UHGV virus genome: UHGV-0299546
Origin: a virus
Length of the DNA stretch: 35,363 nt
Strand: one strand, 5' to 3'
This document shows, piece after piece, positions 2,187 through 34,610 of this stretch. Each line of letters opens with the position of its first letter. Position 1 is the first letter of the stretch. The notes beneath the pieces are model-generated. The model worked only from the letters and a program-made list of their open reading frames with translations. It searched no databases and was not told the origin of the DNA. Position numbers and translations under genes: made by a program.

Positions 2187-2223
2187 CTCAAACCATAATT
2201 CATTTTAGACGGAGTATTTTGAT

Positions 2224-2574: not shown

Positions 2575-2584
2575 CAGGTGATTT

Positions 2585-2872
2585 ATGACCAAAGACTATG
2601 CACAAGGTGTATTTATCCGCTTTATTGATTTTCGCGGTGAACTGTTATTACGCGCATCCGCTATTGATGGAGTGACTCCGGCGGGTAAAAACGGAGCCGC
2701 CGAAGCCACTTACGTTTATCTGAACGGCACACGACTGCTTGTGGAACTTCCGTACCAGAGCGTACGAGAAATCATTAACGAAGCTGAAAAGGCACGTCAG
2801 GTTAATGGCGATAAACCCTATATCGAAATTATTTGTATGGATTCAGAAGCAGAAATCCAGAAGGCAGATTAA
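2585..2872 (+). CDS. Hypothetical early-region protein
   Basis: 95-aa ORF, AGGTGA RBS, tightly packed with neighbours. Confidence 0.55.
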   Translation: MTKDYAQGVFIRFIDFRGELLLRASAIDGVTPAGKNGAAEATYVYLNGTRLLVELPYQSVREIINEAEKARQVNGDKPYIEIICMDSEAEIQKAD

Positions 2873-2882
2873 AGGGTGTGCG

Positions 2883-3125
2883 ATGGACAAAGAATATAAA
2901 GCTCTCGTCAATAAAGCACTTGAGCGTTTTCATTTTCGCTTAAACACATCAGGGCTTCACGCCGAACACGCAGCCCATGATTCATTAGCAAGGGCAATCA
3001 GAAGCCTTTATGACGTGGCCTTTTACGCTGACGATTTGGATGCAATTAACGAACTTTCCGAACTCGTCTGCGCTGCAGAATGCGGGGATCGCATTGAACC
3101 ATATAAACTGGGGAATATCGCATGA
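2883..3125 (+). CDS. Hypothetical early-region protein
   Basis: 80 aa from ATG 2883 (MDKEYKALVNK...), in frame with ORF-track entry 2739..3125. Confidence 0.5.
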   Translation: MDKEYKALVNKALERFHFRLNTSGLHAEHAAHDSLARAIRSLYDVAFYADDLDAINELSELVCAAECGDRIEPYKLGNIA

Positions 3126-3235
3126 GTATATTTATGTCATGGATTGTTCTGATTATTTCGGTGGCCTGCGCAATCGGGATTATGCGAATTATTCATTCAG
3201 TGAAAAAGATTGAGCGTTTTTTCTCTGACGAATAA
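3122..3235 (+). CDS. Possible 37-aa hydrophobic small membrane protein
   Basis: Hand-translated MSIFMSWIVLIISVACAIGIMRIIHSVKKIERFFSDE; ATG overlaps the upstream stop (ATGA); below the ORF-track size cutoff. Confidence 0.3.
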   Translation: MSIFMSWIVLIISVACAIGIMRIIHSVKKIERFFSDE

Positions 3236-3328
3236 CAGCACAAATAAAACACCAGATTAAATAAGAAAACGTGAAAACCATCCGAATTAGCGGAGGCATT
3301 CACACACGTAAATAATGGAGATACAAAA

Positions 3329-3739
3329 ATGAACGCAAAAGAAAAAGGCATTGTAACTGCGCTAAAAAATATATCGAAGACCGCAAACAAAGCCATTCAG
3401 GATGCAACAAATGCAGGAATGATTGGGCCTGCCACCACAGCCATGATGATAGCAAGAGTAACCGCCGAAGCAGCCGAAATTATCGAAAAACAGGATGCTG
3501 AACTAACGGTTCTCAGAACACAACCAGTCACCGGACTGGATTTGTCTAACACCGGACGCCTTATTTACACAATTGGCTCGGAGCCACAGCAATACACCAT
3601 TATCGCCGGATTACAGGATAAATACCTGATCACTCCTCACCCCATAAGGGAATCAGAAATTCTGACAAATCTCCGCCTGATAGAGCGCTCTCAAGTCGCA
3701 TTCATTGATGGCGCGCAACGTGCCGTATTTAACGCATAG
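3329..3739 (+). CDS. Hypothetical early-region protein
   Basis: 136-aa ORF with GGAG RBS. Confidence 0.55.
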   Translation: MNAKEKGIVTALKNISKTANKAIQDATNAGMIGPATTAMMIARVTAEAAEIIEKQDAELTVLRTQPVTGLDLSNTGRLIYTIGSEPQQYTIIAGLQDKYLITPHPIRESEILTNLRLIERSQVAFIDGAQRAVFNA

Positions 3740-3762
3740 GGCTATTGGGCAAAGAGAGCGTA

Positions 3763-3966
3763 ATGGCAATTAAGCATTTTCCCGTCGTTCGCTTTACCTC
3801 CAGAGGACGCGAATACGAGGTCGACGAACGCCTGATTACCACTATCGACAAACACCGTTCAGAAAAGGATGCACATCACATCTATCTCACTGACGGCACT
3901 TACTTCTGCGCCACGAATGTGGTGCGGGTGAACCTTATCCGACAGGCACAGGAGTCACGCAGATGA
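3763..3966 (+). CDS. Hypothetical early-region protein
   Basis: ATG 3763 (MAIKHF...) preceded by AGAGAG; alternative start at 3745. Confidence 0.45.
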   Translation: MAIKHFPVVRFTSRGREYEVDERLITTIDKHRSEKDAHHIYLTDGTYFCATNVVRVNLIRQAQESRR

Positions 3967-4208
3967 CCATTCTGGACTACATCGCTGCCAATCCGGGTTG
4001 TAGCGGTGGAGAAATCGCCGCAGCACTGAATACCCCAACCACAACCATTAATGCGGAGTTACGCCGACTCTGGCGCGACGGCTTAGTCATCAGAGAAGAA
4101 CGCAAAACAGGCGGTCGGTTCTCTTACCAGGTAAACCCGATGCCGTTCGGGTGTGGCAACCCACTTACTCACATGTTTAACCAGCTACTGAAGGAAGCCA
4201 GAGCATGA
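3963..4208 (+). CDS. Small putative winged-helix DNA-binding protein
   Basis: 81 aa; translationally coupled (ATGA overlaps at both ends); the winged-helix call is judged by eye from the translation. Confidence 0.5.
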   Translation: MTILDYIAANPGCSGGEIAAALNTPTTTINAELRRLWRDGLVIREERKTGGRFSYQVNPMPFGCGNPLTHMFNQLLKEARA

Positions 4209-4504
4209 GCACCATCAACCACCAGGAACTACGCGAACTGGCGACTGACCTGCAACGAATGGCAACGCATCAAAAATTACTGGCGTTTCGCGCAATGCTC
4301 TCGCCATCTGCCGTGCTGGCACTGCTGGATGAGCTGGAGCACGCCAGAACCATGGCTCCTGCCATTCGTCTGACGCTCCATCATGAAATCAAGGATTTCT
4401 GCGCACAGCTGGAGTCACCTGGTGAATCAGAAACACCGGAAGCAATGCAGCAAGAGCCGCTGCAACGCATCGACAAGGTTTTTGATTTTTTCCTTAACCA
4501 GTAA
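4205..4504 (+). CDS. Hypothetical early-region protein
   Basis: 99-aa ORF, AAGGAAG RBS, start overlaps the upstream stop. Confidence 0.5.
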   Translation: MSTINHQELRELATDLQRMATHQKLLAFRAMLSPSAVLALLDELEHARTMAPAIRLTLHHEIKDFCAQLESPGESETPEAMQQEPLQRIDKVFDFFLNQ

Positions 4505-4518
4505 GGGAGTAAATCACA

Positions 4519-5070
4519 ATGAAACTCAAACCAATGAGTACACCTGGTGTGGCTCCGGCACATGTAAAACCATGGACACAGCAGGAGGATGAACTTTTAG
4601 CCACGTTATACCACACCCACACAGCGCCGGAGCTGACCAAGCACCTTCAGAGAACCGAGTCAGCAATACGAAGCCGCATTCGTCTTTTGCTCTCTCAGGG
4701 GGTTATTCACGCCAAACGCCCCCACCTGAGCACAAAAGAACTCAGCATGCTCATCAGGAATCGCCACACAAAAACTATCCGGGAACTCGCGAATGAGCTG
4801 GGGCGCTCGCCATCCACAGTGGAACTGAACCTGAGAAAAAGAGGGTATCGGTTCAGGAAATACGGGGAACTCCACCACAGAACCAGATACAGCGATCACC
4901 TGGTGGAGTTGGTAACTGAACTGCGTGATGAGAAGGGGATGACATTCAGCGAAATCAGGAAGCACATCCGGGACACAGCCGGGATATCCCTTAAAAGATG
5001 GGTCCCCGCCCGGCTTTACGCACGATATACCGCCGCTGACACCGTGCTTTGCGAACTACTACCGGACTGA
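4519..5070 (+). CDS. Hypothetical basic protein, possibly DNA-binding
   Basis: 183 aa, AAGGGAG RBS; Arg/Lys-rich with HTH-like segments (judged by eye). Confidence 0.55.
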   Translation: MKLKPMSTPGVAPAHVKPWTQQEDELLATLYHTHTAPELTKHLQRTESAIRSRIRLLLSQGVIHAKRPHLSTKELSMLIRNRHTKTIRELANELGRSPSTVELNLRKRGYRFRKYGELHHRTRYSDHLVELVTELRDEKGMTFSEIRKHIRDTAGISLKRWVPARLYARYTAADTVLCELLPD

Positions 5071-5190
5071 GTAACCACTATGTACACACAAAAAAACCGC
5101 TTGCCATGCCGCAATCAGTCAGGTTACATTTCCGCTGCACCTCATAAAACGGGTGCCGGGATTTCCACCCCGCTGACAACTACAGCGCAC

Positions 5191-5210
5191 AACCGCGCCA
5201 GCGGTTTTTT
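5191..5210 (+). terminator. Candidate intrinsic terminator
   Basis: 6-bp stem AACCGC/GCGGTT with GCCA loop (5191-5206) followed by T7 (5204-5210). Confidence 0.4.
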
Positions 5211-5229
5211 TGTGCGTACTGTATCGCCA

Positions 5230-5390
5230 CGTCTTTTTCGCACACGAATTATGGTGGGGCGTACGGGGCCGACTTCGGTCGGGCCGGGTTCTGTAGTTGC
5301 CGGTTGTGGAAACCCTGTACGTCTCACCACCCCGAGTTTTCCACCTCTGGATGGTGAGTTTTCAAAACTTGCAACTACAGAGGCCACACC
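5230..5390 (+). other. GC-rich structured non-coding region (candidate sRNA or cis-regulatory leader)
   Basis: Hairpin GGCCGAC-TTCG-GTCGGGCC at 5265-5285 (UUCG tetraloop); inverted repeats CTCACCA/TGGTGAG (5323-5329 / 5351-5357) and CTGTAGTTGC/GCAACTACAG (5291-5300 / 5371-5380), the latter adjoining the RBS of the 5391 ORF. Confidence 0.3.
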
Positions 5391-5621
5391 ATGGCAAACC
5401 GCAAACAGCACCGCGCTATCGCGGAGCGTCGTCACATCCAGACTGAAATCAACCGCAGACTTTTCCGCGCATCACGCGTCGCGCAAATCATGCACATCAA
5501 TATGCTGCATGAGCGCAGCCACGCACTATCAAACATCTATTCCGCCGCTGTTTTCAGCTATCTGGCGGATGATCTGCACGAGCTTCAACAGCTCATCCAG
5601 CAGCAAAACAAACTCCATTAA
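5391..5621 (+). CDS. Hypothetical small helical protein
   Basis: 76-aa ORF with AGAGG RBS; composition looks protein-like, unlike the overlapping 205-aa frame. Confidence 0.5.
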   Translation: MANRKQHRAIAERRHIQTEINRRLFRASRVAQIMHINMLHERSHALSNIYSAAVFSYLADDLHELQQLIQQQNKLH

Positions 5622-5693
5622 TTCCTGTTCCGGGCCTTTCCTGCACCTTGCGGCGGGAGGCCTTCGCACATCTGTAACAAGAGGATTGCCGCA

Positions 5694-6059
5694 ATGATTC
5701 TCGCCAACGACTTTCTTGAATACCTGCTCAACACAGAACGTGATCTTGCCGCTCGCGTGCGTGAACGTTATGACATGTACCTGAAATCCCTGCCTGTACC
5801 GCAGCTCGCTGACGGAAAGATTGTTATTGATGGTCGCTACATGATTGACAGCCACGAGGGAAATTACAGGCTTTACCGCATTGAAGGTGGCACCCCGTCC
5901 GTTATTGGCATTTACCAGCGCCCATCCTCTGCAATCGTCGATGTGATTGCCGACAGCATCCGCATCACACATCGCCATGCCGACACAGAAGACACCGTGC
6001 TGGAAATTCAGCGGCTGGCTACAGTCTGCCGCGACACCCTGAATGGCATGACGAAGTAA
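5694..6059 (+). CDS. Hypothetical protein upstream of A (orf83-position)
   Basis: 121-aa ORF immediately preceding the replication gene. Confidence 0.55.
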   Translation: MILANDFLEYLLNTERDLAARVRERYDMYLKSLPVPQLADGKIVIDGRYMIDSHEGNYRLYRIEGGTPSVIGIYQRPSSAIVDVIADSIRITHRHADTEDTVLEIQRLATVCRDTLNGMTK

Positions 6060-6065
6060 ATCACT

Positions 6066-8831
6066 ATGACGGCAGAGTACATCAGGGACTGGCAACAACC
6101 GCGCCACGCAGTGGGGCGTGAAGGAACGGGGATCCCCGCTCCTGAATCCGCGCTTTCCTCCTGGCTGGATGCCTACCGGGCAGAGAACGAGCGCCGCCAG
6201 GAAATGGCTGATGCGGCGTTCTCCGCCACGCCGCTGGGCAACCTGATTAATAAAAGCCTGGACGCACAGGAAAAACAGGACAAAACCATCACACTGGCAG
6301 GAGACGCCAGAAAACAGGCACGCGGCGCGGTGGATGAAGCCATGGCCTCGCTGCGCCTGCTGCCGTCCTATCTGCGCGATCCGCTTATTCGCCACCTCTC
6401 CTTCCTTCGCAAAAAACAGGAAGCCGATCGCCGGAAAGGCAAAAAGAGCTGGCAGGCGGAACGCTATGCACGCGGAACCCTGCGCAAAATATTCGAACGT
6501 CTGGATCGCACTGACGGACGCTGGCTGACACCGGGTTATCGCTCCCTTGCCGGACGCGAACGCCTGGACGATTTGCTTTACCTGCCGCAGCTCAACAAAC
6601 ACCAGATACAGACGCTGGCCACCATGACGGCGGCGATGTTCAGCAGCACCTTCGAAAAGCTCTGCGATGGCTTTGGCGCGACTGATGGCGAGCTGACCAT
6701 GGATGTAACACTGAAGGCGTATCAGATGCTGGCCCGCATGGCGTTACACCTGCACGCTATGCCTCCACATTATGACGCTCTGACAACAGACAAAGACCGG
6801 AGGAACGAACCGGACACGGAGCTGCTGCCGGGCGCAATCCTTCGCCTGACCTGTGCGGAATGGTGGAAACGCAAACTGTGGCTGTTACGTTGCGAGTGGA
6901 GAGAAGAACAACTCCGCGCCGCCTGTCTGGTTTCCAGAAAAACATCGCCCTATCTGAGTCAGGACGCATTAAGTGAATTTCGCGCACAGCGCGAGAAAAC
7001 ACGCGATTTCCTGAAAAGTTTCATGCTGGAAAATGAAGACGGGTTCACGATTGATCTCGAGACGGTGTATTACGCGGGAGTAAGTAACCCGGTCCACCGT
7101 AAGGCAGAAATGATGGCCACCATGAAAGGGCTGGAACTTCTGGCCGAAGCCCGTGGCGACAAAGCGGTGTTTCTGACTGTCACCTGCCCGTCAAAATACC
7201 ACGCAACAACGGAGAACGGTCATCCGAACCCCAAATGGAACGGGGCCACCATGCGCGACTCCAGCGATTACCTGGTTAACACGTTTTTTGCGGCGGTCCG
7301 CAAAAAACTGAACCGCGACGGTCTGCGCTGGTATGGCATCCGCACGGTGGAGCCTCACCATGACGGCACCGTGCACTGGCATATGATGGTCTTTGCACAC
7401 CCGGACGAGATTGAAACCATCGTGTCCCACGTCTGCGATATTGCCATTCAGGAAGACCGCCACGAGCTGGGCGATGACATAACTCCGCGTTTTAAGGCGG
7501 AGTACGTAGACGGCTCAAAAGGCACGCCAACCAGCTACATCGCCACCTACATCGGAAAGAACCTGGACAGCCGCGCCGTGGATGGCATCGACCCGAAAAC
7601 GGGCAAGCCACGCATTGACCACGAAACAGGTAAATCAATGGCCGAGAGCGTGGAGCGCGCCATCGGCTGGGCGCGCCTTCACCGGGTCCGCCAGTTCCAG
7701 TTCTTTGGCATTCCCTCCCGTCAGGTGTGGCGTGAACTCCGCCGCCTTGCCAGCCAGATGGCACGCAACCCGGAAGGCCCGCAACGGCTGAAGGATGACG
7801 CAATGGATGCGGTTCTTGCTGCCGCTGATGCCGGGTGTTTTGCCACCTACATTGAAAAACAGGGTGGCGTACTTGTTCCGCGCAAGGACTACCTGATTCG
7901 CACCGCCTACGACCTCGCAGATGAGCTGAACGATTACGGCGAACAAAGCGTACAGATTTACGGGATCTGGTCGCCACTCATCGGGGAATCCTCCCGTGTG
8001 TGCACGCATCCGGATAACTGGAAGCTGGTAAGACGCAAACCGGAAGCGGAAGACAGCGCCCGCGAAAATGGTTTTGACCTTCAGGGCGGCCCTGCCGCCC
8101 CTTGGACTCGTGGCAATAACTGTCCCCGTGTACAGGAAACGGACAACAACGGGACAGAACAGCAGGAAGAACGGCCAGCACTGTGGCCGCAGCTTCCTGA
8201 CGGCGTTGATGTGGATGAATGGATGCGCTCACTGAAACGGCACGAACGCCGGGCGCTGATGCGTTCGCTTCGTGACAAACAGGCAAAAAACAGCAGTGAT
8301 GAAATGCAGAGCTGGACACAGAGCCGCAAACAGCAGCGGCCTTTGCCTGATAACCACGAATTACTCGCTAAAGAATGGCGGGAATCTGCCGAATCTCTCG
8401 GCCTGCATATCGGTGAACAGCAGATGCAGCACCTGTTACGAGGCGGCAGTCTGTACGTTGACGGCAGCATCATTGCACCGCAGGGATTTGAAATTGTACG
8501 CAAACCAGATACCCGACCGGACAGCCGAATCACGCAGCTCTGGCAGCGCCTGAGCCGTAATCACGGCGTAAACAGCACGGAAATCCGCCATAACCCGGTT
8601 TCCAGCTATCTGAAACAGCTCGAGGCATCAGACCCTGAAGCCGCTGCACGCCTGGCATCCACAATTCAGCAGGACCAGAACACCATGAAAACTCCCGTTA
8701 CCGTGCTTTCTGACATGCTGCGCGCCATCCGTGACGCAGAGCACGCACAGAGAATCAATGAAACCACTGAACGCGCACGTCACAAGGCGGGTCTGTTGCA
8801 GGACAAAGGCAATAGCGAGAAGAAAAAATAA
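6066..8831 (+). CDS. A: Replication initiation protein gpA (rolling-circle HUH endonuclease)
   Basis: 921 aa; HUH-type motif TVHWHMMVF and paired catalytic tyrosines in YIATYIGK, typical of the P2 A family. Confidence 0.9.
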   Translation: MTAEYIRDWQQPRHAVGREGTGIPAPESALSSWLDAYRAENERRQEMADAAFSATPLGNLINKSLDAQEKQDKTITLAGDARKQARGAVDEAMASLRLLPSYLRDPLIRHLSFLRKKQEADRRKGKKSWQAERYARGTLRKIFERLDRTDGRWLTPGYRSLAGRERLDDLLYLPQLNKHQIQTLATMTAAMFSSTFEKLCDGFGATDGELTMDVTLKAYQMLARMALHLHAMPPHYDALTTDKDRRNEPDTELLPGAILRLTCAEWWKRKLWLLRCEWREEQLRAACLVSRKTSPYLSQDALSEFRAQREKTRDFLKSFMLENEDGFTIDLETVYYAGVSNPVHRKAEMMATMKGLELLAEARGDKAVFLTVTCPSKYHATTENGHPNPKWNGATMRDSSDYLVNTFFAAVRKKLNRDGLRWYGIRTVEPHHDGTVHWHMMVFAHPDEIETIVSHVCDIAIQEDRHELGDDITPRFKAEYVDGSKGTPTSYIATYIGKNLDSRAVDGIDPKTGKPRIDHETGKSMAESVERAIGWARLHRVRQFQFFGIPSRQVWRELRRLASQMARNPEGPQRLKDDAMDAVLAAADAGCFATYIEKQGGVLVPRKDYLIRTAYDLADELNDYGEQSVQIYGIWSPLIGESSRVCTHPDNWKLVRRKPEAEDSARENGFDLQGGPAAPWTRGNNCPRVQETDNNGTEQQEERPALWPQLPDGVDVDEWMRSLKRHERRALMRSLRDKQAKNSSDEMQSWTQSRKQQRPLPDNHELLAKEWRESAESLGLHIGEQQMQHLLRGGSLYVDGSIIAPQGFEIVRKPDTRPDSRITQLWQRLSRNHGVNSTEIRHNPVSSYLKQLEASDPEAAARLASTIQQDQNTMKTPVTVLSDMLRAIRDAEHAQRINETTERARHKAGLLQDKGNSEKKK

Positions 8832-9011
8832 CCAAGAAAGAAATCATCAATTGTATGAAGGTAGAGTTTAGACATGGTAAGGACGTTCCATGAGGCACAC
8901 TGTAATTTCATATAGTATTCCTCTTCCCTGTTTGATAAAAAAGTGCAATACTATAAATAGTCCAGTTAAATGCTTTTTCAATTCACTTAAAATCAAGAGG
9001 TTACAGTTAAG

Positions 9012-10133
9012 ATGGGCGACTTAGGTGGTATTCAGTCAGATTTAGCCCAACTAGTTAGACTGGTAATAACTGAACAGTATGATGACGTTCGGTTATATGT
9101 CGCTCGCTTGGTGCGTAAATATCGGGAAACTATGCCTGCTCTATCCGAGCAGCTTGATCTTTATCTACGAAATAAACCGCAAAAGCCTGCACAAAGCCTG
9201 CGTAAGGTTACCGCACCAAAACAAGCGCTGCCTCAAACCATGCCTGTGGACGAGGAGTCAAGGCTTACCTTGCTTAAAGCACCAAATGAAAAGATTGTGA
9301 GCAAACCTCTACTGTCCAGTCAGATAGAAGACTCACTGGATCAAATTATTCTTGAGCGGAAGCACATCGATCGCCTCAAGACTCTCGGCTTACAACCAAC
9401 ACGCTCTGCCATTTTTGTTGGCCCTCCGGGTGTAGGTAAAACACTTACGGCAAGCTGGTTGGCTCAGAAATTAGGGGTTCCTTTTTACGTTCTTGATTTA
9501 ACGGCAGTAATGAGCAGCTATCTGGGCAAAAGCGGAAATAACCTTCGGGCAGCTCTAGATTTTGCGAAGAAAGGGCCGTGCGTTCTTCTGTTAGATGAAA
9601 TTGATTCAATCGCCAAAAAGAGAAGTGATGATTCTGATGTTGGAGAATTAAAAAGACTTGTTACCGTGATACTCCAGGAGGTTGACGAATGGCCGTCTTC
9701 TAGTTTGCTACTTGCTGCAACTAACTTCGCTGAGTTGATTGATCCAGCACTATGGAGACGTTTTGATTTAGTGCTCAATTTTGAGAAGCCAGATAGCGAA
9801 AGTATTAAAGAAGCAATTAAACGCTTTTCAGGTCCCGACTACGCGATTTTTGCACGTTGGATAGATCTACTGGCTATTATGTTCAAAAATGAATCTTTTA
9901 GTAATATTGAGCGTTCTATCAACAAATTCCGACGTTCGGTCGCTTTAGGTATTTCCTCAGATGAAGAGTTGATTGGGTCGTTCATTAAAGATGGTTTATC
10001 AGAATTAGACAGGAATGAACGTAAAGAAATTGCAGTTACTCTAAAAAGAAATTCTAAATTATCCCAGCATGCCATATCAGACTTAACCGGAGTCAGTAGG
10101 GATACAATTAGAAAATACAGTCAAAAAATGTAA
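9012..10133 (+). CDS. AAA+ ATPase with C-terminal HTH-like tail (IetA-like?); first gene of hotspot cargo
   Basis: Walker A GPPGVGKT (nt 9420-9443), Walker B VLLLDEID, sensor AATN; AT-rich relative to flanking phage genes; AAGAGG RBS. Confidence 0.85.
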   Translation: MGDLGGIQSDLAQLVRLVITEQYDDVRLYVARLVRKYRETMPALSEQLDLYLRNKPQKPAQSLRKVTAPKQALPQTMPVDEESRLTLLKAPNEKIVSKPLLSSQIEDSLDQIILERKHIDRLKTLGLQPTRSAIFVGPPGVGKTLTASWLAQKLGVPFYVLDLTAVMSSYLGKSGNNLRAALDFAKKGPCVLLLDEIDSIAKKRSDDSDVGELKRLVTVILQEVDEWPSSSLLLAATNFAELIDPALWRRFDLVLNFEKPDSESIKEAIKRFSGPDYAIFARWIDLLAIMFKNESFSNIERSINKFRRSVALGISSDEELIGSFIKDGLSELDRNERKEIAVTLKRNSKLSQHAISDLTGVSRDTIRKYSQKM

Positions 10134-10156
10134 TACAGCATAGATAAGGAGTATGT

Positions 10157-12382
10157 ATGGCGAAAACTAATTTTCTGATTGGACGCGGCGAATTATTAAC
10201 CAGCGATATTCCTGGTCCTAAAAGAGTGCCCGGAAAAGCTGAGGTTTATTCTCTTTACGAATCGAAACAACGTTTATTGCCGCAAATTGCATCTACTATA
10301 GAAAATTTTGATGATTTACCCAGTCAGGCATGTCCTTATGATTATGCTGTGGCTAAGTTGACGTTGAATCCGAGCTATATTGCACGCTCTTTTTTTCCTG
10401 CAAAAATGCTTAAGTCTACCGGGTTAACGTCTATTGGCAGCAGGACGGTAAAAATTACGCCTCAAAGCTGGAAGCGAAAAGTTACTGTGTCAGAAGTAAC
10501 TACGACACAAATGTTTGTTGCTGGTAAAAGAGAATCCTTCAAAGAGTTACCTCATTGGGTGTCAGGACTCAAAGAGTTTTCTGACGAAGCGATTGATTTT
10601 GCACGCATAGAACGGTTCGATGCCTATTTACCCGAAGAGCGTATTATTACCATTGGTGAGCAGGATTCTTCGTATTTTGAGGTTGGTGTTCATTTACTGC
10701 CAGATAATGAACAAGACTTGGTTCAGCAACAATTTGTTCAGTTTGCATCAAATTTGAACATCAAAGTACATACTTCATTAGCTTTTACCGCTGGTACATT
10801 ATGGTTCGTGCCAATCCAGGCCGATAGAATTACTATTAGTAAGCTTGCGAAATTTACATTTGTACGAGTCATAAGACCGGTTCCAAGATTGCGTGGGATT
10901 AGACCAATACAAAGGAACTACGGTCCTTTAGCTCAGTGTAAATTGCCTGCTGAGGGCCCCGTATCTTCAGAAATAAAAGTTGCGATTCTTGATGGTGGTT
11001 TACCATCAGAGCACGCTATATCGCCATGGTTAAAATCCTATAGAGTTTTGGACGATCATGCAGAGGATGATCCAGACGGTTTAGAGCATGGTTTAGCTGT
11101 GTCTTCAGCCTTTTTATTTGGACCAATAAGTAATAAATCGGAAGCGAAAAGACCATACTCTTATATTGATAACTTAAGAGTTTTGGACAACAAGACCTGC
11201 CAAGAAGATCCGCTGGAACTATATCGAACTTTGGGCTTTATTGAAGAGGTATTGTTGTCTCGCCAGTATCAGTTTATCAATCTAAGTTTAGGTCCAGACC
11301 TACCAATTGAAGATACGGAAGTTCATGCATGGACTTCCGTTATTGATGATTTGTTAAGTGATGGTGAAACATTAATGACTGTTGCTGTTGGCAACAATGG
11401 AGAAATGGATCGCAAGTCTGGTAATGCAAGAATTCAAGTACCAGCCGATTGCGTTAATGCTCTTGCTGTTGGTGCTTGTGATACAGTTAATGATACGGAA
11501 TGGAAACGAGCACCATATAGCGCCATTGGGCCAGGCAGAAGTCCTGGCGTGATGAAACCGGATTTAGTTGCGTTTGGTGGTGACACAGACGAGTACTTTC
11601 ATGTTTTAGGTAAAGGTAAGAAGCCTGTAATCATACCCCAGCTAGGAACAAGCTTTGCCTCTCCTTACGCCTTACGAGCAGCTGTTGGTGTTCGGGCAAT
11701 TTTAGGGAACGATTTGAGCCTACTAGCAATCAAAGCTTTGTTAATTCATGCGTCAAAACAGCTTGATCATCCTTGTACAGAAGTTGGCTGGGGAAAACTT
11801 CCTGAAGACTTGAACGACATTATAGTCAGCCCTGATGGTGTTGCCCGTATCGTCTACCAAGGTGAATTGAAACCAGGAAAATACTTACGCGCTCCTCTTC
11901 CAATACCTGAAGGTGGCTTGAAAGGTAGAATAAACTTAGCGGCAACTTTCTGTTATGCAACAACCACTGATCCACAAGACCCAGCTTCCTATACAAAAGC
12001 TGGTTTGGAAGTGACATTCCGGCCAAATGATTCAAAAATCAAAGACGGAAAACAAAATGCTGAAACCAAGGGATTCTTTGAACTGGCCAAATATTCAACT
12101 GAAAGTGAGCGACGTTCTGACATGGGCAAATGGGAGACCGTCTTACATAATTCGAAGAACATGCTAGGTTCAACTCTAAAAAATCCTGTATTTGACATTC
12201 ATTATAACGCTCGTGAGGCCGGTGCAAGCATAGCCAGCCATAAGGCAGAAAAAATCAAGTATGCTCTTATAATTACCATTAAGGCATCAAAGCACCAAGA
12301 CCTGTATAACGAAATTTTACGTACTTATAATCAGGTGCTCGTGCCAATTCAACCGCAAACATCAATTCCTATTCGTTCGTAA
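10157..12382 (+). CDS. Subtilisin-like serine protease, peptidase S8 family, with ~265-aa N-terminal domain of unknown function (IetS-like?)
   Basis: Catalytic triad motifs in D-H-S order: VAILD279GG (nt 10991-10993), EH311GLAVSS, GTS499FASP (nt 11651-11653); oxyanion VGNNGE; AAGGAG RBS; 23 bp after the ATPase stop. Confidence 0.88.
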   Translation: MAKTNFLIGRGELLTSDIPGPKRVPGKAEVYSLYESKQRLLPQIASTIENFDDLPSQACPYDYAVAKLTLNPSYIARSFFPAKMLKSTGLTSIGSRTVKITPQSWKRKVTVSEVTTTQMFVAGKRESFKELPHWVSGLKEFSDEAIDFARIERFDAYLPEERIITIGEQDSSYFEVGVHLLPDNEQDLVQQQFVQFASNLNIKVHTSLAFTAGTLWFVPIQADRITISKLAKFTFVRVIRPVPRLRGIRPIQRNYGPLAQCKLPAEGPVSSEIKVAILDGGLPSEHAISPWLKSYRVLDDHAEDDPDGLEHGLAVSSAFLFGPISNKSEAKRPYSYIDNLRVLDNKTCQEDPLELYRTLGFIEEVLLSRQYQFINLSLGPDLPIEDTEVHAWTSVIDDLLSDGETLMTVAVGNNGEMDRKSGNARIQVPADCVNALAVGACDTVNDTEWKRAPYSAIGPGRSPGVMKPDLVAFGGDTDEYFHVLGKGKKPVIIPQLGTSFASPYALRAAVGVRAILGNDLSLLAIKALLIHASKQLDHPCTEVGWGKLPEDLNDIIVSPDGVARIVYQGELKPGKYLRAPLPIPEGGLKGRINLAATFCYATTTDPQDPASYTKAGLEVTFRPNDSKIKDGKQNAETKGFFELAKYSTESERRSDMGKWETVLHNSKNMLGSTLKNPVFDIHYNAREAGASIASHKAEKIKYALIITIKASKHQDLYNEILRTYNQVLVPIQPQTSIPIRS

Positions 12383-12395
12383 TCCTTCAAGACAT

Positions 12396-12426
12396 AATGC
12401 CCCTCAATTTGAGGGGCATTTCTTTG
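12396..12426 (+). terminator. Intrinsic terminator ending the cargo operon
   Basis: Stem TGCCCCTCA/TGAGGGGCA (12398-12406 / 12410-12418) followed by TTTCTTT. Confidence 0.65.
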
Positions 12427-12450
12427 CACAAAAGTGCACAAATTTGCACA
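12425..12450. repeat. Three direct TGCACA(A) repeats at 10-bp periodicity
   Basis: TGCACA at 12425, 12435 and 12445; lies between the cargo and the expected cos site. Confidence 0.5.
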
Positions 12451-12824
12451 ATTTTTTTGAACGACTTTTTGCCCTTCCGGCCCGCATGGCGGCTGGATCC
12501 GTCAAGGATCCGTGCGTGCACAAAAAAACGCGCTTTTTCTGCGCGCAGGTGACGGGGGAACAGCCCGCGTTTCAGGGGGTAAATAGCGTTCCCTTAACGA
12601 TGTCGCAGCGACACGACAGAATGGCCGTATTTCTCACGCTGAGCGTGAAAAATACGTGAGGGATTCTGGTTTGATGGGGTGAAAGGTAAGGCCGTCAAAA
12701 TCGCACTGAGGCGGCGAGAACATGCAGTCAGCGCAGTGGGATTGCGTAAGAATCTGACCGTCGATGATGGCAATAAGCAGGAAAGCGTCGTGAAATTATC
12801 TGACTGATACAGGAGCTGGAGAGT

Positions 12825-12849
12825 CGGGGCATAAATTTTTTATGCCCCG
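12825..12849. other. Perfect 11-bp-stem hairpin downstream of the portal gene
   Basis: CGGGGCATAAA-TTT-TTTATGCCCCG; no U-tract follows on either strand, so function is unclear. Confidence 0.4.
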
Positions 12850-12875
12850 GCGAAGCAGCAGACAAGCGAAGCGCG

Positions 12876-13922
12876 TCAGGATGTGGGCTGGGTATCTAAC
12901 AGTGCGTAAGGGTTAAAGCGGATCACCTCTTCGCCAAGCCAGTCATTGATGTGCTTCATGGCCTCCATGACGGGCATCAGCTCGTTAATTGCGTAAACCC
13001 GCGCGGCCTTCTCCACATCACCAAACGCACTTTTTTCGCCCGGCATCGCCCCCATCAGTTGCGGCGGAACGCGGTGCGCAGCCAGCACATCATCACGGGA
13101 TGCCGCCTTAACATTCATGAACTCATCCTTTGCGGTGATCTGCTGGAACGGCAAAATTTGCACCCCCTCTTTGCCCCCGTTGGGCGCATGAATGAGCACG
13201 TTTTTAAACGCACCACCACCACGTGCCCCCTGTAGCGTTTCTTTCAGGGAGTCCATGCTTTCGCGGTTTACCTGCGCTGCACCGATGTAGATGATGCACC
13301 CGGCGTGGGATCCGTTGTCGTAGTACAGTTTTCTGAACATGTCCGCCGAATGAGAAAGGCTGGCCGAGAGTAATGCGCCAAGATATTCCGGCATGCCGTA
13401 GATTTCCTGGTTAATATCCGGATTCATCAGGTGGCACACTTTGCCAGGACGAAACTGGAACGCGTCCTTGCCATCCTGCACATACCACCATGATTCAAGA
13501 TCGCTTCCGCGTCGCATGTATTTCGCCAGTGCGTGCCGTAATTTAAGCGGTTCGCCGAGCATATTGCTCCGAAGCTCAAGGAATGCGTTACCGAACACAA
13601 ACCAGTCCAGCGCCAGCGCCGAGAAATCCTGCCGGGAAAGCAGCGGGTGCGGGATGTAGCAACCGAGTAATACATTGCGCTTAAAGTAAAGCGCAGACTG
13701 ATGCCAGGACGTTTGCCGGGCAGCTCTTGCCAGACCGTACCAGTCCACCGGGGTTTCATACCACCGCCCGTTATCAGCACAGTACATATTGTCCAGCAGA
13801 TCATGCCCGGTCAGGCGATAAGGACCATCAAATGTGAATGCACTGAGCGATGATTCTTTCCTGAGCGCATCAGCGAGATCAATGCGTGAACTCATGCGCA
13901 CTTTTTTATTTTTTCTGCTCAT
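12876..13922 (-). CDS. Q: Portal protein gpQ
   Basis: 348 aa, P2 Q-like by length and position; start overlaps the P stop (ATGA). Confidence 0.93.
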   Translation of the reverse strand: MSRKNKKVRMSSRIDLADALRKESSLSAFTFDGPYRLTGHDLLDNMYCADNGRWYETPVDWYGLARAARQTSWHQSALYFKRNVLLGCYIPHPLLSRQDFSALALDWFVFGNAFLELRSNMLGEPLKLRHALAKYMRRGSDLESWWYVQDGKDAFQFRPGKVCHLMNPDINQEIYGMPEYLGALLSASLSHSADMFRKLYYDNGSHAGCIIYIGAAQVNRESMDSLKETLQGARGGGAFKNVLIHAPNGGKEGVQILPFQQITAKDEFMNVKAASRDDVLAAHRVPPQLMGAMPGEKSAFGDVEKAARVYAINELMPVMEAMKHINDWLGEEVIRFNPYALLDTQPTS

Positions 13923-15673
13923 CAGAACTCCATAACCGTGAAACGCTCGTTTTCTCCTTCGCCGCCAATCGGTTCGTTAATGACAGCAAGCATGGTTGCC
14001 CACGCAAGGTCGCCGTGGCTGATCCCCCTCGCGCGGTCCGTTTCGTAAGTGATAAAGCCGCCCGGTGTTTTCACCTTACGCACGGCGTTAAAGGCCGCGA
14101 CCAGCTCGCGTTCGGCGCGATCGTATTCCCACCGCCCGGCACGCATTATTTGCAGCATTTTCAGTACCAGCGACCGTTTTGATGACAGCGTGAAGGTGTA
14201 CGGAATAGCAGCAGGGAAAAACCGTTTCACTATCTGATAAACAGCCTCCCCGTTCCCGCCCGTCACATCAATGCCGATGTGTTCCACGTTGTAGCGATAC
14301 GTGAACTCTTCAATGACTCTGGCCTGTTCTTCAAACTCCAGCCCCTGAACGCGTCGCGTCTCCACCGTTCGAAAACGGCCACCAGGAACAGCCGGAGGAA
14401 CCACCACGGACACAGCGCCGCTGTCGCCGTTGCCACTGCTGCCGTTTGCGTCATACCCAATCCATACCGGACGATTCCCCATCGGGCGGGGAGCAAAAGG
14501 TTTCCAGTCTTTCCAGTCGTCGTATCCGTCAACACCGCAGCCAATCAGGATATTCAGGTTAAATGCCGATTCCCCTTCGCGAACAAACTCACACATATAG
14601 AGATTGAGGAACTCGTCTTCGGTATTTTCATCACGAATTTCGTCGATATCGGTGTGTTTCCAGCCGTGATTAACCACATCTTCCAGCGTGACAATTTGCC
14701 GCCACGTCCGGTCAGGGCAGATAAGCCCGTTATGCAGCGTTTTCCAGTCCACAGAAAAACGCTGGCGTTTATGCGAGGCCTTTTTCTCGTTCCAGCGGTC
14801 GCCGTTCCAGTAGGCGTATGCCTCGTGCGTTTCGGTGGATGGCGTGGAGAAGTAGGTGCGCCGCAGTCCGCTGAGGGTTGCCATAGCGCCAGCCACCTTG
14901 CGCAGTTCAGCAAAGCGACTGACCCAGAAAAATTCATCAAAATAAAAATTGCCCGTATAGGACTGTGCCGACGCAGCAGAAGTGCCGAGAAAATGCAGCT
15001 CTGCGCCGTTGGAGAGGATGATTTTATCGCCCCCTTTCAGCTCCACATCAACTTCAGCCGCGGCCTTCTGAATAATGCTTTTAAACTGGAACGCCTGACG
15101 ACGCGACGCAGACAAAAAAATCTGGTTACGCTGGTAAGGTTGCGCCACATCGTCACGCAGCGCCATCAGCAGTGCTTCCTGTGCAAAATACCAGGTCGCC
15201 CCAATCTGTCGGGATTTCAGGATCATCCTGTTACGTATCCCGGCTTCCCTGCAAAGGGTCAGGGAGTCAAACCAGCCCCGCTGATGCCACTCCAGCCTGC
15301 TGATGATTTTTTCCCGCAGTGCGGCAATCTGTTCCTGCGTGAAATGATTTTTGAGTTTTTTCGCCCGGCCTTTCTTTCCTGCGGCCATCACATCCGGCTG
15401 GCCATCATGCAGCTTTTTAAGCTGCCGGGTCAGCAGGTCTATTTCCTTAAAGTCACCGCCTGTTTTATTCTGTTTTTCAGTAAGCTGGATGAGGCGCGCA
15501 TCGATGGACTGCGTGACACGCTGCACGGGTGGCGTTTCATCCCACTGGTCACGTTTTTTCCACGCATAAATCGTGTTCGGGTTTATTCCCATCAGACGTG
15601 ATATTTCTGCGGGCGGATAACCCTGCCAGTAAAGTTGCCGCGCACGCTGGCGCACAAAAGCGTCCTGAATCAT
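13922..15673 (-). CDS. P: Terminase large subunit gpP
   Basis: 583 aa; P2 P-like by length and position; GGGGGAG RBS. Confidence 0.93.
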   Translation of the reverse strand: MIQDAFVRQRARQLYWQGYPPAEISRLMGINPNTIYAWKKRDQWDETPPVQRVTQSIDARLIQLTEKQNKTGGDFKEIDLLTRQLKKLHDGQPDVMAAGKKGRAKKLKNHFTQEQIAALREKIISRLEWHQRGWFDSLTLCREAGIRNRMILKSRQIGATWYFAQEALLMALRDDVAQPYQRNQIFLSASRRQAFQFKSIIQKAAAEVDVELKGGDKIILSNGAELHFLGTSAASAQSYTGNFYFDEFFWVSRFAELRKVAGAMATLSGLRRTYFSTPSTETHEAYAYWNGDRWNEKKASHKRQRFSVDWKTLHNGLICPDRTWRQIVTLEDVVNHGWKHTDIDEIRDENTEDEFLNLYMCEFVREGESAFNLNILIGCGVDGYDDWKDWKPFAPRPMGNRPVWIGYDANGSSGNGDSGAVSVVVPPAVPGGRFRTVETRRVQGLEFEEQARVIEEFTYRYNVEHIGIDVTGGNGEAVYQIVKRFFPAAIPYTFTLSSKRSLVLKMLQIMRAGRWEYDRAERELVAAFNAVRKVKTPGGFITYETDRARGISHGDLAWATMLAVINEPIGGEGENERFTVMEF

Positions 15674-15827
15674 TGCTCCCCCTGAGTAATTACAGGAAGA
15701 TTACCCGCGCGCGAAACCGTTCTCCTTAACCCCCTGTTCTGACCGTTTTCTTACAACAAAAGCCCTTTGTATCAGCCTGTTACGCTTTGCCATCATGACT
15801 GAAGAACCAGTCAGAGGGGCAAAAACT

Positions 15828-16664
15828 ATGGCTAATGAAAAAAAGACATCCCGCAAAAAGTTTCGCGTGGCTGTCTCCGGATCAACTGTTGATGGCCGTG
15901 AAATCAGTCCGGTGCATCTGCGTGAAGCCGCCGAGAACTTCAACCCGGATGTTTACGCTGCCCGCGTGAACGTTGAGCACTATCTCTCGCCATGCCCGTC
16001 AAGCGAATTTTCCGCAATGGGCGATGTCACCGCACTGAGTACGGAAGACATTACGGAAGGTCCGCTGGCCGGACGTACTGCGCTGTATGCAGAAATCGAA
16101 CCGACCGAGCGCATGAAGCAGCTTGTCGCGGACGGCAAGAAAATCTATTCCAGTATCGAACTGCACCCGCAGTTCTCCGTTAACGGGCGCGCCTATCTGG
16201 TCGGGCTGGCGATGACCGACACCCCGGCAAGCCTGGGCACTGAGCGCCTGAAATTCACGGCACAGCAACGTCAGGCGGTGATGACGTTCAACAGTATCCA
16301 GGGTGAAGCGCCGCTTATCTCCGAAGCCATCGAGTCTGAAATCATCGAAATGGCAGAACAACGCCAGGAAGAAGGCACCCAGTGGTTTAACCGCGTAATG
16401 GGGATTATTGGTCGTGGCCGCAAAGCGGATGACGCCAGTTTCTCCCGTATTCAGGAAGCGCTGGAAGGCGTCGCAACGTCACAGGCCGACATTATCGACC
16501 GTTTTAATGTGCTGGAAACCCGCCATCAGCAGGACAGCCAGAAAATCACGTCACTGACCACAGAGCTGACAGCATTGAAGGAAAAACTGCGCACGCAGGA
16601 CGGCGATCCGCAGAACCGGTTCACCGCAACAGGTGCAGCCTCCGACCAGCTGGCTGACTTCTGA
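15828..16664 (+). CDS. O: Capsid scaffolding protein gpO
   Basis: Resembles P2 O from ATG 15828 (MANEKKTSRKKFRVAVSGST...); GAGGGG RBS; divergent from P. Confidence 0.88.
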   Translation: MANEKKTSRKKFRVAVSGSTVDGREISPVHLREAAENFNPDVYAARVNVEHYLSPCPSSEFSAMGDVTALSTEDITEGPLAGRTALYAEIEPTERMKQLVADGKKIYSSIELHPQFSVNGRAYLVGLAMTDTPASLGTERLKFTAQQRQAVMTFNSIQGEAPLISEAIESEIIEMAEQRQEEGTQWFNRVMGIIGRGRKADDASFSRIQEALEGVATSQADIIDRFNVLETRHQQDSQKITSLTTELTALKEKLRTQDGDPQNRFTATGAASDQLADF

Positions 16665-16687
16665 TAAGACAAAGGAGCAAATTTTTT

Positions 16688-17740
16688 ATGAATCTGGTGA
16701 TGTCAGATATTACCCGCAACAAGCTGGGTTGCTATATGGCGCAGCAGGCGTCGCTTAACAATATCCCGGTTTCTGCACTGGTATCGCGATTTACCGTGGA
16801 ACCCGCGGTGCAGCAGCGTTTTGAAAACGCCTCAAAGGAAAGTACCGAATTTACGAAAAGAATTAACGTGATCGGCGTGACCGACCAGAAAGGCGAAAAA
16901 ATCCTCCTGGATACCACAGGACCGATTGCGCGCACGAATACCAGTTATGACGGCACAAAACGCCGTAACCCGAATAACGTGGTTGATCTGAAAAACCGCA
17001 AATACCAGTGCGAACAGGTGAACTACGACACGTTTATTTCGTATCCGCAGCTTGATGCCTGGTCGGCACACCCTGATTTTCAGTCCCGCATCAGCGCACA
17101 GATTGCCCGACAGGTGGCACTTGACCGCATCATGATCGGTTTCAACGGCACGTCTCACGCGGATGAGTCCAACTTCAGCACCAACAAGTTGCTTCAGGAC
17201 GTTAACGTGGGGTGGCTGAAGCACATCAGAACCAACGCCAGCGAACGCGTTATGAATGACGTGACGCTGACCTCCCGTAACATGGACAACACCGTGGCGC
17301 ACGCGGGTAAGTATGCGAACGCTGATGCACTGGTACAGGACGCGCGCTCATCCCTGCTGGATGAATGGCACAAGGAAGCTGACGACCTCGTGGTGATTAT
17401 GGGGCGCAACCTGTTTAACTCGCTGCGTCTGCCCGTGCTGAACAGCATCAGCGGCCAGAATCCCAATGCGGAATTACTTGCCGGGCAGCTCATTCTGTCA
17501 TCGCGCACCATTGGCGGGCTGGGCGTGTTCCTTGCGCCGTTCTTCCCGGATGCAACGATGCTGATCACCTCGTTCAACAACCTGTCGATTTACTGGCAGA
17601 AAGGTTCAATGCGTCGCCTGATGAAAGACGAGCCGGAATACAACCGCATCGCCACCTACCAGTCCATCAATGACGCTTATGTCGTTGAAGACTATGGCAA
17701 GTGCGCGATGGTCACTGGCTTGAAGTTCGCCGACAGCTAA
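16688..17740 (+). CDS. N: Major capsid protein gpN
   Basis: 350 aa; P2 N-like motifs (FTVEP, GEKI, YxCEQ, DYVVEDY); AAGGAG RBS. Confidence 0.93.
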   Translation: MNLVMSDITRNKLGCYMAQQASLNNIPVSALVSRFTVEPAVQQRFENASKESTEFTKRINVIGVTDQKGEKILLDTTGPIARTNTSYDGTKRRNPNNVVDLKNRKYQCEQVNYDTFISYPQLDAWSAHPDFQSRISAQIARQVALDRIMIGFNGTSHADESNFSTNKLLQDVNVGWLKHIRTNASERVMNDVTLTSRNMDNTVAHAGKYANADALVQDARSSLLDEWHKEADDLVVIMGRNLFNSLRLPVLNSISGQNPNAELLAGQLILSSRTIGGLGVFLAPFFPDATMLITSFNNLSIYWQKGSMRRLMKDEPEYNRIATYQSINDAYVVEDYGKCAMVTGLKFADS

Positions 17741-17749
17741 TCAACTCAC

Positions 17750-17768
17750 GGCGGGCATCATGCCCGCC
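17750..17768 (+). other. Stable stem-loop between N and M
   Basis: GGCGGGCA-TCA-TGCCCGCC; no U-tract follows. Confidence 0.3.
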
Positions 17769-17785
17769 TGTAACGGAGAGAAAAA

Positions 17786-18586
17786 ATGATTACTCCTGCA
17801 CAGCAACACTGGCAGAACGTGATGGCACAGCGCGCAGGCCGGGCGAATGAAGGCGTGGACCACGCCGCGCGTACCGCGCATGAAGAGGTGCTGTATCGTC
17901 TGCGTCTGGCACAGGCCCGGCTTAAGGGCGTACAGGCCAGAAGCGCCAAAGCCGCCATCAAAAAAGAGTTGTTGCCGGACTTTTCCGGCTGGATTGAGGG
18001 AACACTGGAGGCTGACGGCGGGCAGCAGGATGAAGTGATTGCCACGCTGATGGTGTGGGCGATTGACTGCGGCGATCTTCCGCTGGCACTGCGTATTGGT
18101 GCATATGTGGTCCGTCACAACCTCATCATGCCGGATAACTTTGGACGTACTGCTGCCACGGTACTGACCGAAGAAATCTGCAACCCGGTACTGACGCAGG
18201 CCGGGACGGATGCCGACGCGGATTTGTCCGCCTTTATCGAACCACTGGATACCCTCCGGGAGATTGTCACCGACCAGGACATGCCGGACGAAGTGCGCGC
18301 CAAATTATGCAAGGCGTGCGCCTTTGCCCGCCGTGGCCTGACCGATGCGGACAGCATGGCCTCATCACTGAAGCTGCTGCGCGAAGCGATGCACCTGAAC
18401 CCGAACGCAGGTGTGAAACGCGAGATTGCAACCCTTTCCCGCGCTCTGAAAAAAGCCGATTCCGCAGCCGCACCAGAAGATGCCAGCACACCGCAGGCGC
18501 AGGACGAAAGCAGCAAAAGTAAAAAGACAACGCGGAAGCCTGCAACACGAAAAACCACCGCGACGCAGAAGGCGAAGCGCGGTTAA
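17786..18586 (+). CDS. M: Terminase small subunit gpM
   Basis: 266 aa; N-terminus and internal blocks (KKELLP, PDEVRAKL, AGVKKEI) resemble P2 M. Confidence 0.88.
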   Translation: MITPAQQHWQNVMAQRAGRANEGVDHAARTAHEEVLYRLRLAQARLKGVQARSAKAAIKKELLPDFSGWIEGTLEADGGQQDEVIATLMVWAIDCGDLPLALRIGAYVVRHNLIMPDNFGRTAATVLTEEICNPVLTQAGTDADADLSAFIEPLDTLREIVTDQDMPDEVRAKLCKACAFARRGLTDADSMASSLKLLREAMHLNPNAGVKREIATLSRALKKADSAAAPEDASTPQAQDESSKSKKTTRKPATRKTTATQKAKRG

Positions 18587-18687
18587 CGACTGACCCCGTC
18601 AGCGGGCGGCGTGCGCGGTGTTCCGGTTTGACTCCGTGACCGTTTACACCGCGCACCCACCGCCCGATTTTTTCAGGAGTGAACCCC

Positions 18688-19182
18688 ATGAGTATGGTTG
18701 CCAGAACCAACCCCGGACCCGCAGAGGACGACATCACCGATACCGATGATGGTGATACCCGTATTTCAGCGGGTGCATTCTGGCCGGATATTGTGCTGCG
18801 TGAGCTGCGTCTGGCGGTACGACTGCCGGGGCGCGTGACCACCTCCCGCCTGCTGCATACCGCCACCGGAGCTGTGGCACACGTTACCCGCGAGCTGGAA
18901 GCATGGCAGCAGGAACAGCAGGCGGCTGGCCATCAGACGCTGGCCGATGTTCCGGCACCCGTAATTAACGGAGAAAGCGTCAATCTCTGGCACTGGCGCA
19001 ATGCTGTTTATACCGCCACGCGCGCCCTGATTCTGGAGCGTTATCGTGATGCAGACACAACGGACAAGGGCGACCGCCGGGCGGACGCACTGGATATACA
19101 GACATCGGATTTGTGGCGTGATGTGAGCTGGGCCATCTCTGACATTCTGTGCCGCCCACGAATCTTTGCGGATTTGTGCTGA
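18688..19182 (+). CDS. L: Capsid completion protein gpL
   Basis: Resembles P2 L (ADVP...DGES, LWRD); ATG 18688 has a CAGGAG RBS, whereas the ORF-track GTG at 18679 has none. Confidence 0.85.
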   Translation: MSMVARTNPGPAEDDITDTDDGDTRISAGAFWPDIVLRELRLAVRLPGRVTTSRLLHTATGAVAHVTRELEAWQQEQQAAGHQTLADVPAPVINGESVNLWHWRNAVYTATRALILERYRDADTTDKGDRRADALDIQTSDLWRDVSWAISDILCRPRIFADLC

Positions 19183-19382: not shown

Positions 19383-19384
19383 CA

Positions 19385-34521: not shown

Positions 34522-34610
34522 GGAAACCGCGACGGGGGAGCAATCCCCCGTCAATCGGTTGCCAGGGTAAGGTCGATAAGGTACCCTATCTCACAGACAC
34601 GAACAACAAA

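Follow-up and report, generated by a model that had tools for sequence, protein, structure and literature searches.

What does a P2-like prophage carry between its replication gene and its portal gene, and what could such a cargo do? We asked this of the virus genome UHGV-0299546, a stretch of 35,363 nucleotides analysed at its full length (the window), in which two genes encoding an AAA+ ATPase and a subtilisin-like S8 serine peptidase form a compact operon at this position. An initial annotation of the DNA had likened the pair to the anti-phage system IetAS and had proposed that it sits in a hotspot of exchangeable defence genes. Our analysis bears this out: it is close to certain that the pair belongs to the IetAS family and is carried as hotspot cargo, and we consider it very likely that IetAS serves as swappable accessory cargo in the gpA-gpQ defence hotspot, with a toxin-antitoxin-like abortive mechanism. 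The family, the hotspot and the exact protein pair at the hotspot are all known from the literature, the pair at this slot since 2022, and the usual programs for detecting defence systems recognize it; because identical proteins at the same slot are labelled ietAS by Rousset et al. (2022; PMC9122126), the finding was already catalogued and is correct but ordinary.

A two-gene cargo between the replication and portal genes

The window comprises what is essentially an entire prophage of the P2 family (P88-like, Xuanwuvirus) of Escherichia coli. Positions 5000-17000 are ~98% identical to Escherichia phage P88 (Peduoviridae, Xuanwuvirus) except for the two-gene segment, and the prophage of E. coli UMNK88 is 97.8% identical to the window across 5080-21429. 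The annotation of these two relatives names the genes on either side of the segment and confirms that it lies between replication gene A and the portal, where it had first been placed:

6066-8831, + strand: gpA-type replication endonuclease, 921 aa, left hotspot flank (RefSeq annotation of the UMNK88 prophage and P88)
8777-12417: cargo insert, 3641 bp, AT-rich, in place of the ParM/partition module of P88 (blastn against P88)
9012-10133, + strand: ietA, AAA+ ATPase of the classical clade, 373 aa, ATG start (PADLOC IetA profile)
10157-12382, + strand: ietS, S8 (subtilisin-like) serine peptidase, 741 aa, ATG start (PADLOC IetS profile)
12876-13922, - strand: portal protein (gpQ homologue), 348 aa, right hotspot flank (RefSeq annotation of the UMNK88 prophage and P88)

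In a blastn comparison with P88, homology stops at window position 8776 and restarts at 12418, and we therefore take 8777-12417 as the cargo. The left junction assigns the final 55 nt of the replication gene to the insert, and the right junction falls within the 3' arm of the terminator hairpin that follows ietS. The same slot in P88 is occupied by ParM, a partition protein and small open reading frames (ORFs). The insert is foreign in composition, and the lower G+C content (GC) initially noted for it is evident at both scales: 0.414 in 8777-12417 vs 0.530 in the remaining window, and 0.38-0.46 over 9000-12500 vs 0.52-0.60 on either side. The two ORFs are exactly as first described in length and spacing; they are co-oriented, with a gap of 23 nt and an AAGGAG ribosome-binding site 7 nt before the ietS ATG.

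The gpA-gpQ hotspot of P2-like phages was defined by Rousset et al. (2022; PMC9122126), and GpA-GpQ is the main P2 defence hotspot also according to PMC13586616. Table S5 of the former study lists "AAA/HTH_50 + Peptidase_S8, WP_000502620 + WP_001140702" at gpA-gpQ; window IetA is 100% identical to UMNK88 WP_000502620 and window IetS is 100% identical to UMNK88 WP_001140702. The Peptidase_S8 / AAA cassette has rank 7 in that table, with 400 of 18,150 loci, and carries the label "ietAS (Gao et al, 2020)".

IetA and IetS match their families over nearly their full lengths

The IetAS-like identity was examined by profile search. IetA matched the PADLOC IetA profile PDLC02196 (E=1e-77), residues 9-372 aligning to profile positions 5-370 of 374, and IetS matched the PADLOC IetS profile PDLC02197 (E=6.7e-52), residues 36-726 aligning to positions 38-733 of 749. 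The NCBIfam families IteA (NF042959) and IteS (NF042956) were the top and sole specific matches of the two proteins, again near full length. Pfam AAA was found in IetA at 134-258 (E=2.6e-30), and Pfam Peptidase_S8 spans just 271-546 of IetS; Pfam searches of IetA residues 1-100 and of IetS residues 1-270 and 550-741 gave no match even up to E=1. The pair shows the sequence features of the IetAS system (PADLOC ietAS / DefenseFinder Gao_Iet), namely matches to both profiles, adjacency, gene order and intact motifs.

IetA consists of an N-terminal helical region, an AAA+ core at ~110-330 and a C-terminal helix-turn-helix (HTH) at ~335-372, an architecture labelled AAA/HTH_50 in the Rousset table (PMC9122126). 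The three-helix C-terminal region gave many sub-threshold HTH matches and contains an invariant SRDTIRK stretch. The core carries Walker A K143, Walker B D195/E196, sensor-1 N238 and arginine finger R249/R250, all of which have counterparts in the alignment to Cdc48/p97 and do not vary among 49 IetA sequences, together with a pore-loop-like S-Y-L-G at 169-172. The AlphaFold2 (AF2) model of IetA has a predicted local distance difference test (pLDDT) score of 75, and its best Foldseek matches are p97 D2, FtsH and FIGL-1.

In IetS, family-specific domains at ~30-244 and ~555-735 surround the S8 core. The long N-terminal region had raised the prospect of a divergent or new variant; this did not hold, because the PADLOC IetS profile covers the region, which is therefore standard family architecture. 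D279, H311 and oxyanion N413 align to subtilisin, and S499, within GTSFASP, appears by reading to correspond to subtilisin GTSMA, the printed alignment stopping short of it. D279/H311/N413/S499 are invariant in 63 IetS sequences, and the numbering of Walker A K143 and catalytic S499 in the initial annotation was correct. The best Foldseek match of IetS is the pro-Tk-SP subtilisin (3afg_B, E=9e-6). The N-terminal part of IetS is similar to tandem ACT/ferredoxin-like domains and the C-terminal part to beta-sandwiches. As a side observation, ietS of E. coli E06 (NZ_CM143910.1) is interrupted by the IS5-like element ISKpn26, a natural inactivation of the toxin gene.

The A-then-S order is kept in all relatives examined (pTiC58, phiT5282H, Serratia, Salmonella, Stenotrophomonas and E24377A). 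Homologues 65-66% identical to the window proteins occupy variable parts of the Salmonella and Stenotrophomonas chromosomes, in every case as A-then-S pairs; further homologues come from Paenibacillus phages, a Pseudomonas Pf phage and plasmids spread over many phyla. None of these settings is a housekeeping one.

The slot is a swap site for defence-type cargo

We surveyed the hotspot in 80 IMG/VR loci with ~100% identical portals, drawn from 586 IMG/VR stretches encoding portal relatives. Both flanks were present in 65 of the 80, and the inserts between them, 1.5-5.2 kb long, formed at least 17 clusters by sequence. Representative proteins of the alternative cargos match PADLOC PD-Lambda-5_B (with an ATPase), PDC-S20 (a KAP NTPase), AbiLi/AbiLii, PDC-M11A, RmrA and PDC-M04A, in agreement with Table S5B of PMC9122126. 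The gpA-gpQ slot is a swap site in which most cargos match known or candidate defence families, and the window pair shares its position between gpA and gpQ homologues with variable, defence-type alternatives. The supposition that such prophages exchange anti-phage cargo here was well founded.

The window cargo was found in none of the 65 surveyed loci with a near-identical portal and is absent from P88 too. This pattern bears on whether the pair might serve phage morphogenesis or housekeeping, as a chaperone with a maturation protease, and not be accessory cargo. The genes do adjoin packaging and head genes, and an ATPase with a protease could serve assembly. The phage has its own gpO scaffold/protease, however; the composition of the segment is foreign, and pairs homologous to it are also carried by plasmids, chromosomal islands and filamentous phages. 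The presence and absence of the pair rule out a morphogenesis protease, and we give this explanation practically no chance of being right.

The survey also showed what else occupies the slot. Most P88-like phages (P88, L002 4379-5654; L013, L020 and others) hold a ParM/StbA-type actin-like ATPase with a partition protein, and partition genes are odd in an integrating P2-like phage. The window IetAS replaces this ParM module, whereas three loci of the L013 type hold ParM together with a second ATPase + S8 pair, of the type found in Enterobacter phage phiT5282H. In two further IMG/VR loci (L047 and L082) the cargo from the portal to the replication gene has a GC of 0.34-0.35 and encodes proteins of 458-471 aa and 263-269 aa, with zero PADLOC matches. 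The two proteins of L082 correspond to sequences one and three of the rank-19 entry in Rousset Table S5B ("HATPase_c | DUF4325"), where sequence three is given one transmembrane helix (PMC9122126). We regard the L047/L082 cargo as a candidate defence system.

Outside the survey, 43 of 5,426 complete E. coli genomes hold the operon at 99.6-99.9% nucleotide identity, each of them on its chromosome. These include the porcine strains ETEC1749, ETEC4085, ETEC1732 and ETEC1734, and UMNK88, from porcine neonatal diarrhoea; ietAS has been reported in 35 porcine enterotoxigenic E. coli (ETEC) strains (PMC11267873), and Wu et al. describe ietAS as prophage-borne in E. coli (10.1101/2022.08.21.504612). 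At the same slot, E. coli CFSAN051542 carries an IetAS at 85% nucleotide identity and Serratia P2-like prophages carry one with 77% protein identity. A megablast search of 50,697 phage records with the operon gave zero matches; relatives of the pair in isolated phages surfaced only by protein search.

Candidate signals for expression of the operon

The operon is bracketed by the following candidate signals:

8910-8955, + strand: inverted repeat ATATAGTATT ... AATACTATA, candidate operator (repeat search)
8932-8961, + strand: sigma-70-like promoter candidate, TTGATA, 18-nt spacer and AATAGT (consensus scan, 9/12 matches)
12396-12420, + strand: intrinsic-terminator-like hairpin, 14 nt past the ietS stop (minimum-free-energy fold)

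The arms of the inverted repeat are 9-10 nt long and bracket the -35-like hexamer. The orthologous Serratia locus (L086) keeps the arms (TACATATAGTATT / AATACTATAAGTA), its spacer having diverged, and distant ietAS loci have different palindromes at this position; we infer that the ATATAGTATT/AATACTATA repeat is a candidate operator. The strong terminator initially proposed was recovered as a G+C-rich stem of 11 bp (12396-12406/12410-12420) with a 3-nt loop, followed by TCTTTG. The predicted folding energy of the surrounding 91 nt is -27.3 kcal/mol (z = -5.6 vs shuffles). A consensus terminator scanner omitted this hairpin and gave a weaker one at 12434-12449 with a T7 run.

A proposed role and the readings that compete with it

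The activity of IetAS has been described in relatives. By the account of Yamamoto et al. (2009) that is cited in PMC13069673, the founding pair on pTiC58 is a plasmid-stability system with IetS as toxin and IetA as antitoxin, and the IetAS homologues S026/S025 of SGI1 form a toxin-antitoxin system that aids island maintenance (PMC5006074). In ietHAS, defence depends on the protease site, and attempts to clone ietA mutants failed, a failure interpreted as loss of the antitoxin (PMC13069673). An IetAS homologue of Bacillus cereus works through abortive infection; co-expression with one SPbeta protein renders it toxic, and escape mutations map to replication functions (10.1101/2022.08.27.505566). 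The ietAS of E. coli ECOR52 is anti-phage in combination with Zorya II (Wu et al., 10.1101/2022.08.21.504612). By analogy with these relatives, a defence or abortive role for the window variant seems likely.

How IetA might exert control over IetS can be sketched, although this specific gating mechanism has somewhat less than an even chance of being correct. The lysogen would express ietAS from its own promoter, and the C-terminal helix-turn-helix of IetA may repress that promoter via the conserved inverted repeat. IetA would act as a p97/FtsH-like hexameric protein remodeller that, through its Y-L-G pore-loop-like motif, holds IetS inactive at the expense of ATP. IetS, for its part, would be pro-subtilisin-like, with the N-terminal tandem ferredoxin-like region preceding the S8 core and a beta-sandwich at the C-terminal end. 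IetA control might then be upset by an infecting phage, through one of its proteins or replication intermediates, and freed IetS could cleave essential cell or phage proteins; growth of the infected cell would stop and the competing phage would fail. Our search of the literature for IetA or IetS returned no study of the mechanism.

A more elaborate version would set the P88-type pair apart as a subfamily whose working parts are new to IetAS, with the N-terminal region of a latent IetS as intramolecular inhibitor or sensor, IetA as a p97-like unfoldase gate, autoregulation by the HTH via the inverted repeat, and addiction combined with abortive defence. This version is doubtful. If it were true, the pair would provide a tractable E. 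coli model for the IetAS mechanism and an addiction module standing in for the ParM cassette.

The polarity of control could also be the reverse, with IetA as a sensor and activator that responds to a phage cue by removing or remodelling the propeptide-like N-terminus of IetS and so switches on a latent zymogen. The pro-subtilisin-like layout suggested by the IetS model (the pro-Tk-SP match and the tandem ferredoxin-like N-terminus) would suit such a role, as would the place of IetA in the classical clade of protein-remodelling AAA+ proteins and its S-Y-L-G, which resembles a pore loop. Mutation of the ATPase is also said to have abolished defence in the 2020 work of Gao and colleagues. The uncloneable ietA mutants of ietHAS, read as antitoxin loss, speak against an activating IetA (PMC13069673), as does the toxin and antitoxin assignment in SGI1 (PMC5006074) and, as far as the cited account of it goes, in pTiC58, from which it follows that IetS needs no IetA to be active. 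The IetS model, moreover, is of low confidence overall. We consider an activating IetA improbable.

Several observations weigh against the preferred reading of the pair as an abortive, toxin-antitoxin-like defence cargo. Control could run either way across the family, IetA restraining or activating IetS. The AF2 model of IetS has a mean pLDDT of 58, with the S8 core (~245-511) below 50, and is confident only at residues 30-244 (pLDDT 85-93) and in parts of the C-terminus, probably because the underlying alignment is shallow in diversity (at least 65% identity); since the core is poorly modelled, the fold matches of IetS serve as hints only and the zymogen-like reading is weak. The candidate promoter, initially placed at about 8932-8958, does have the TTGATA hexamer (8932-8937) and an A/T-rich -10 region downstream, but it ranks as plausible only, because the number of sigma-70-like sites in 8500-13000 does not exceed that in shuffled sequence (7 found vs 7.6 expected).

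The distance to systems challenged with phages points the same way. Scores against the NCBIfam models stayed below the equivalog cut-offs (223.3 vs 510 bits for IteA, 136.6 vs 900 for IteS), and plasmid genes annotated iteS encode proteins 23-28% identical to window IetS; because of these two results, the phage-tested homologues may be distant from the window pair in sequence. The primers used to clone ECOR52 ietAS failed to match the window with up to 3 mismatches and matched none of 85 other loci, and ECOR52 is absent among the 44 complete E. coli genomes that hold the window operon. Single systems, ietAS included, gave limited protection in the hands of Wu et al. (10.1101/2022.08.21.504612), and our search of the literature found no experiment on the exact IetAS variant of the window.

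A last question is whether the pair exists mainly for prophage addiction or maintenance by post-segregational killing, with phage protection secondary. The stabilizing roles reported for pTiC58, as cited in PMC13069673, and for SGI1 (PMC5006074) would fit, as would the fact that the window pair stands in place of the P88 ParM/StbA and partition module, likewise a maintenance function. A decayed prophage in Enterobacter has also retained ietA beside a split ietS. This remnant lies between cpxP and fieF in the record NZ_CP077309.1 (L094; Enterobacter hormaechei FDAARGOS_1433 "plasmid unnamed1"), and holds a gpA fragment, ietA and an ietS split by the insertion sequence ISEc52; the record is 606 kb, linear and includes sodA, cpxAR and pfkA, and it is probably a chromosome fragment with stranded defence cargo. 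The window prophage itself carries an integrase:

291-1322: integrase; the window prophage is integrated

Because the prophage is integrated, segregational loss is less problematic for it than for a plasmid. The alternative cargos of the slot are overwhelmingly of the defence type, and IetAS homologues do protect against phages (10.1101/2022.08.21.504612; 10.1101/2022.08.27.505566; PMC13069673). Addiction and defence are, in any case, compatible with each other. We judge a mainly addictive function to be quite unlikely, and retain swappable defence cargo with an abortive mechanism as the preferred reading.

Other features of the prophage

Immediately to the right of the cargo junction, within the flank common to P88, TGCACAA occurs three times in phase in 12424-12459 (starts at 12425, 12435 and 12445; 10-bp spacing), followed by a T7 run. 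The cos site is probably located within the intergenic stretch 12421-12875, a putative placement, and the TGCACAA copies could either bind a protein near cos or mark a recombination junction.

The early region has features of its own. Within or over an Ash-family ORF (5080-5697), positions 5137-5334 on the + strand hold a tandem of isrK Hfq-binding RNA (5137-5211, 63.6 bits) and C4 antisense RNA (5247-5334, 80.5 bits), both at the Rfam gathering level, and this tandem looks like an immunity-type small-RNA module. The region 2209-5080 is mosaic, matched by the UMNK88 prophage in patches only (87-90% identity), and it includes a 183-aa HTH protein (4519-5070) that lacks a strong family match. 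Near the right end of the prophage, 34500-35124 is AT-rich (GC 0.39); its 144-aa ORF (34690-35124, - strand) had zero Pfam or PADLOC matches, and the segment may be a further accessory locus beside the attachment site.

Comparison with known systems

The founding pair on pTiC58 (L004, 27874-31374) likewise places an AAA+ ATPase gene upstream of an S8 peptidase gene, and its proteins match the PADLOC IetA and IetS families, the IetS scores being weaker than those of the window protein. pTiC58 IetA is 35% identical to window IetA over the AAA+ core (E=1e-41) but is 328 aa long, and its profile match ends at position 322 of 374, vs 370 of 374 for the window protein, a difference that includes the C-terminal HTH region. 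pTiC58 IetS (836 aa) is barely alignable to window IetS by BLASTP and fits the sub-model PDLC02198, whereas window IetS fits PDLC02197; judged by sequence comparison, the homology of the two IetS proteins lies at the profile level only. The pTiC58 pair is borne by a plasmid and the window pair by a prophage.

Measured against the NCBIfam models IteA and IteS, named after Gao et al. (2020), the window pair represents by score a different subfamily: the shortfall described above means that the window subfamily differs from the one used to build these models. It is because of these sub-cut-off scores that RefSeq names the two proteins merely "AAA family ATPase" and "S8 family peptidase", and these generic names can be sharpened to ietAS.

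The island-type ietAS of E. coli E24377A shares with the window pair both families, the gene order and the PADLOC call, ietAS. Its proteins differ in length (IetA 326 aa, IetS 795 aa), and the window pair stands alone. In E24377A (L085, NC_009801.1 3330029-3340792) ietAS lies in a tRNA-Phe island, preceded by an SNF2 helicase and followed by a methyltransferase and a DEAD/DEAH helicase, which is the layout described as ietHAS in PMC13069673. This layout may underlie the co-localisation of type III restriction-modification (RM III) and ietAS reported in 10.1101/2022.08.21.504612. As a compact, stand-alone E. coli variant that runs as a unit from promoter to terminator, the window pair is convenient for solving the IetAS mechanism.

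At the hotspot itself, the old and tin genes of phage P2 occupy the same gpA-portal slot and are likewise prophage-borne exclusion cargo (PMC9122126), but their proteins and mechanisms are unrelated to those of the window pair. A closer counterpart is found in Enterobacter phage phiT5282H (Peduoviridae, Novemvirus), where IetAS again occupies the interval from the replication gene to the portal; IetA of this type is 42% and IetS 38% identical to the window proteins. Two IetAS types ~40% identical to each other at one slot in near-identical phages offer a natural comparison for trigger specificity. The ietAS cassette of Rousset et al. (2022) shows no substantive difference from ours, with the same proteins, slot and label, except that the representative sequence printed in their table is of the phiT5282H-like type, 38-42% identical to the window pair.

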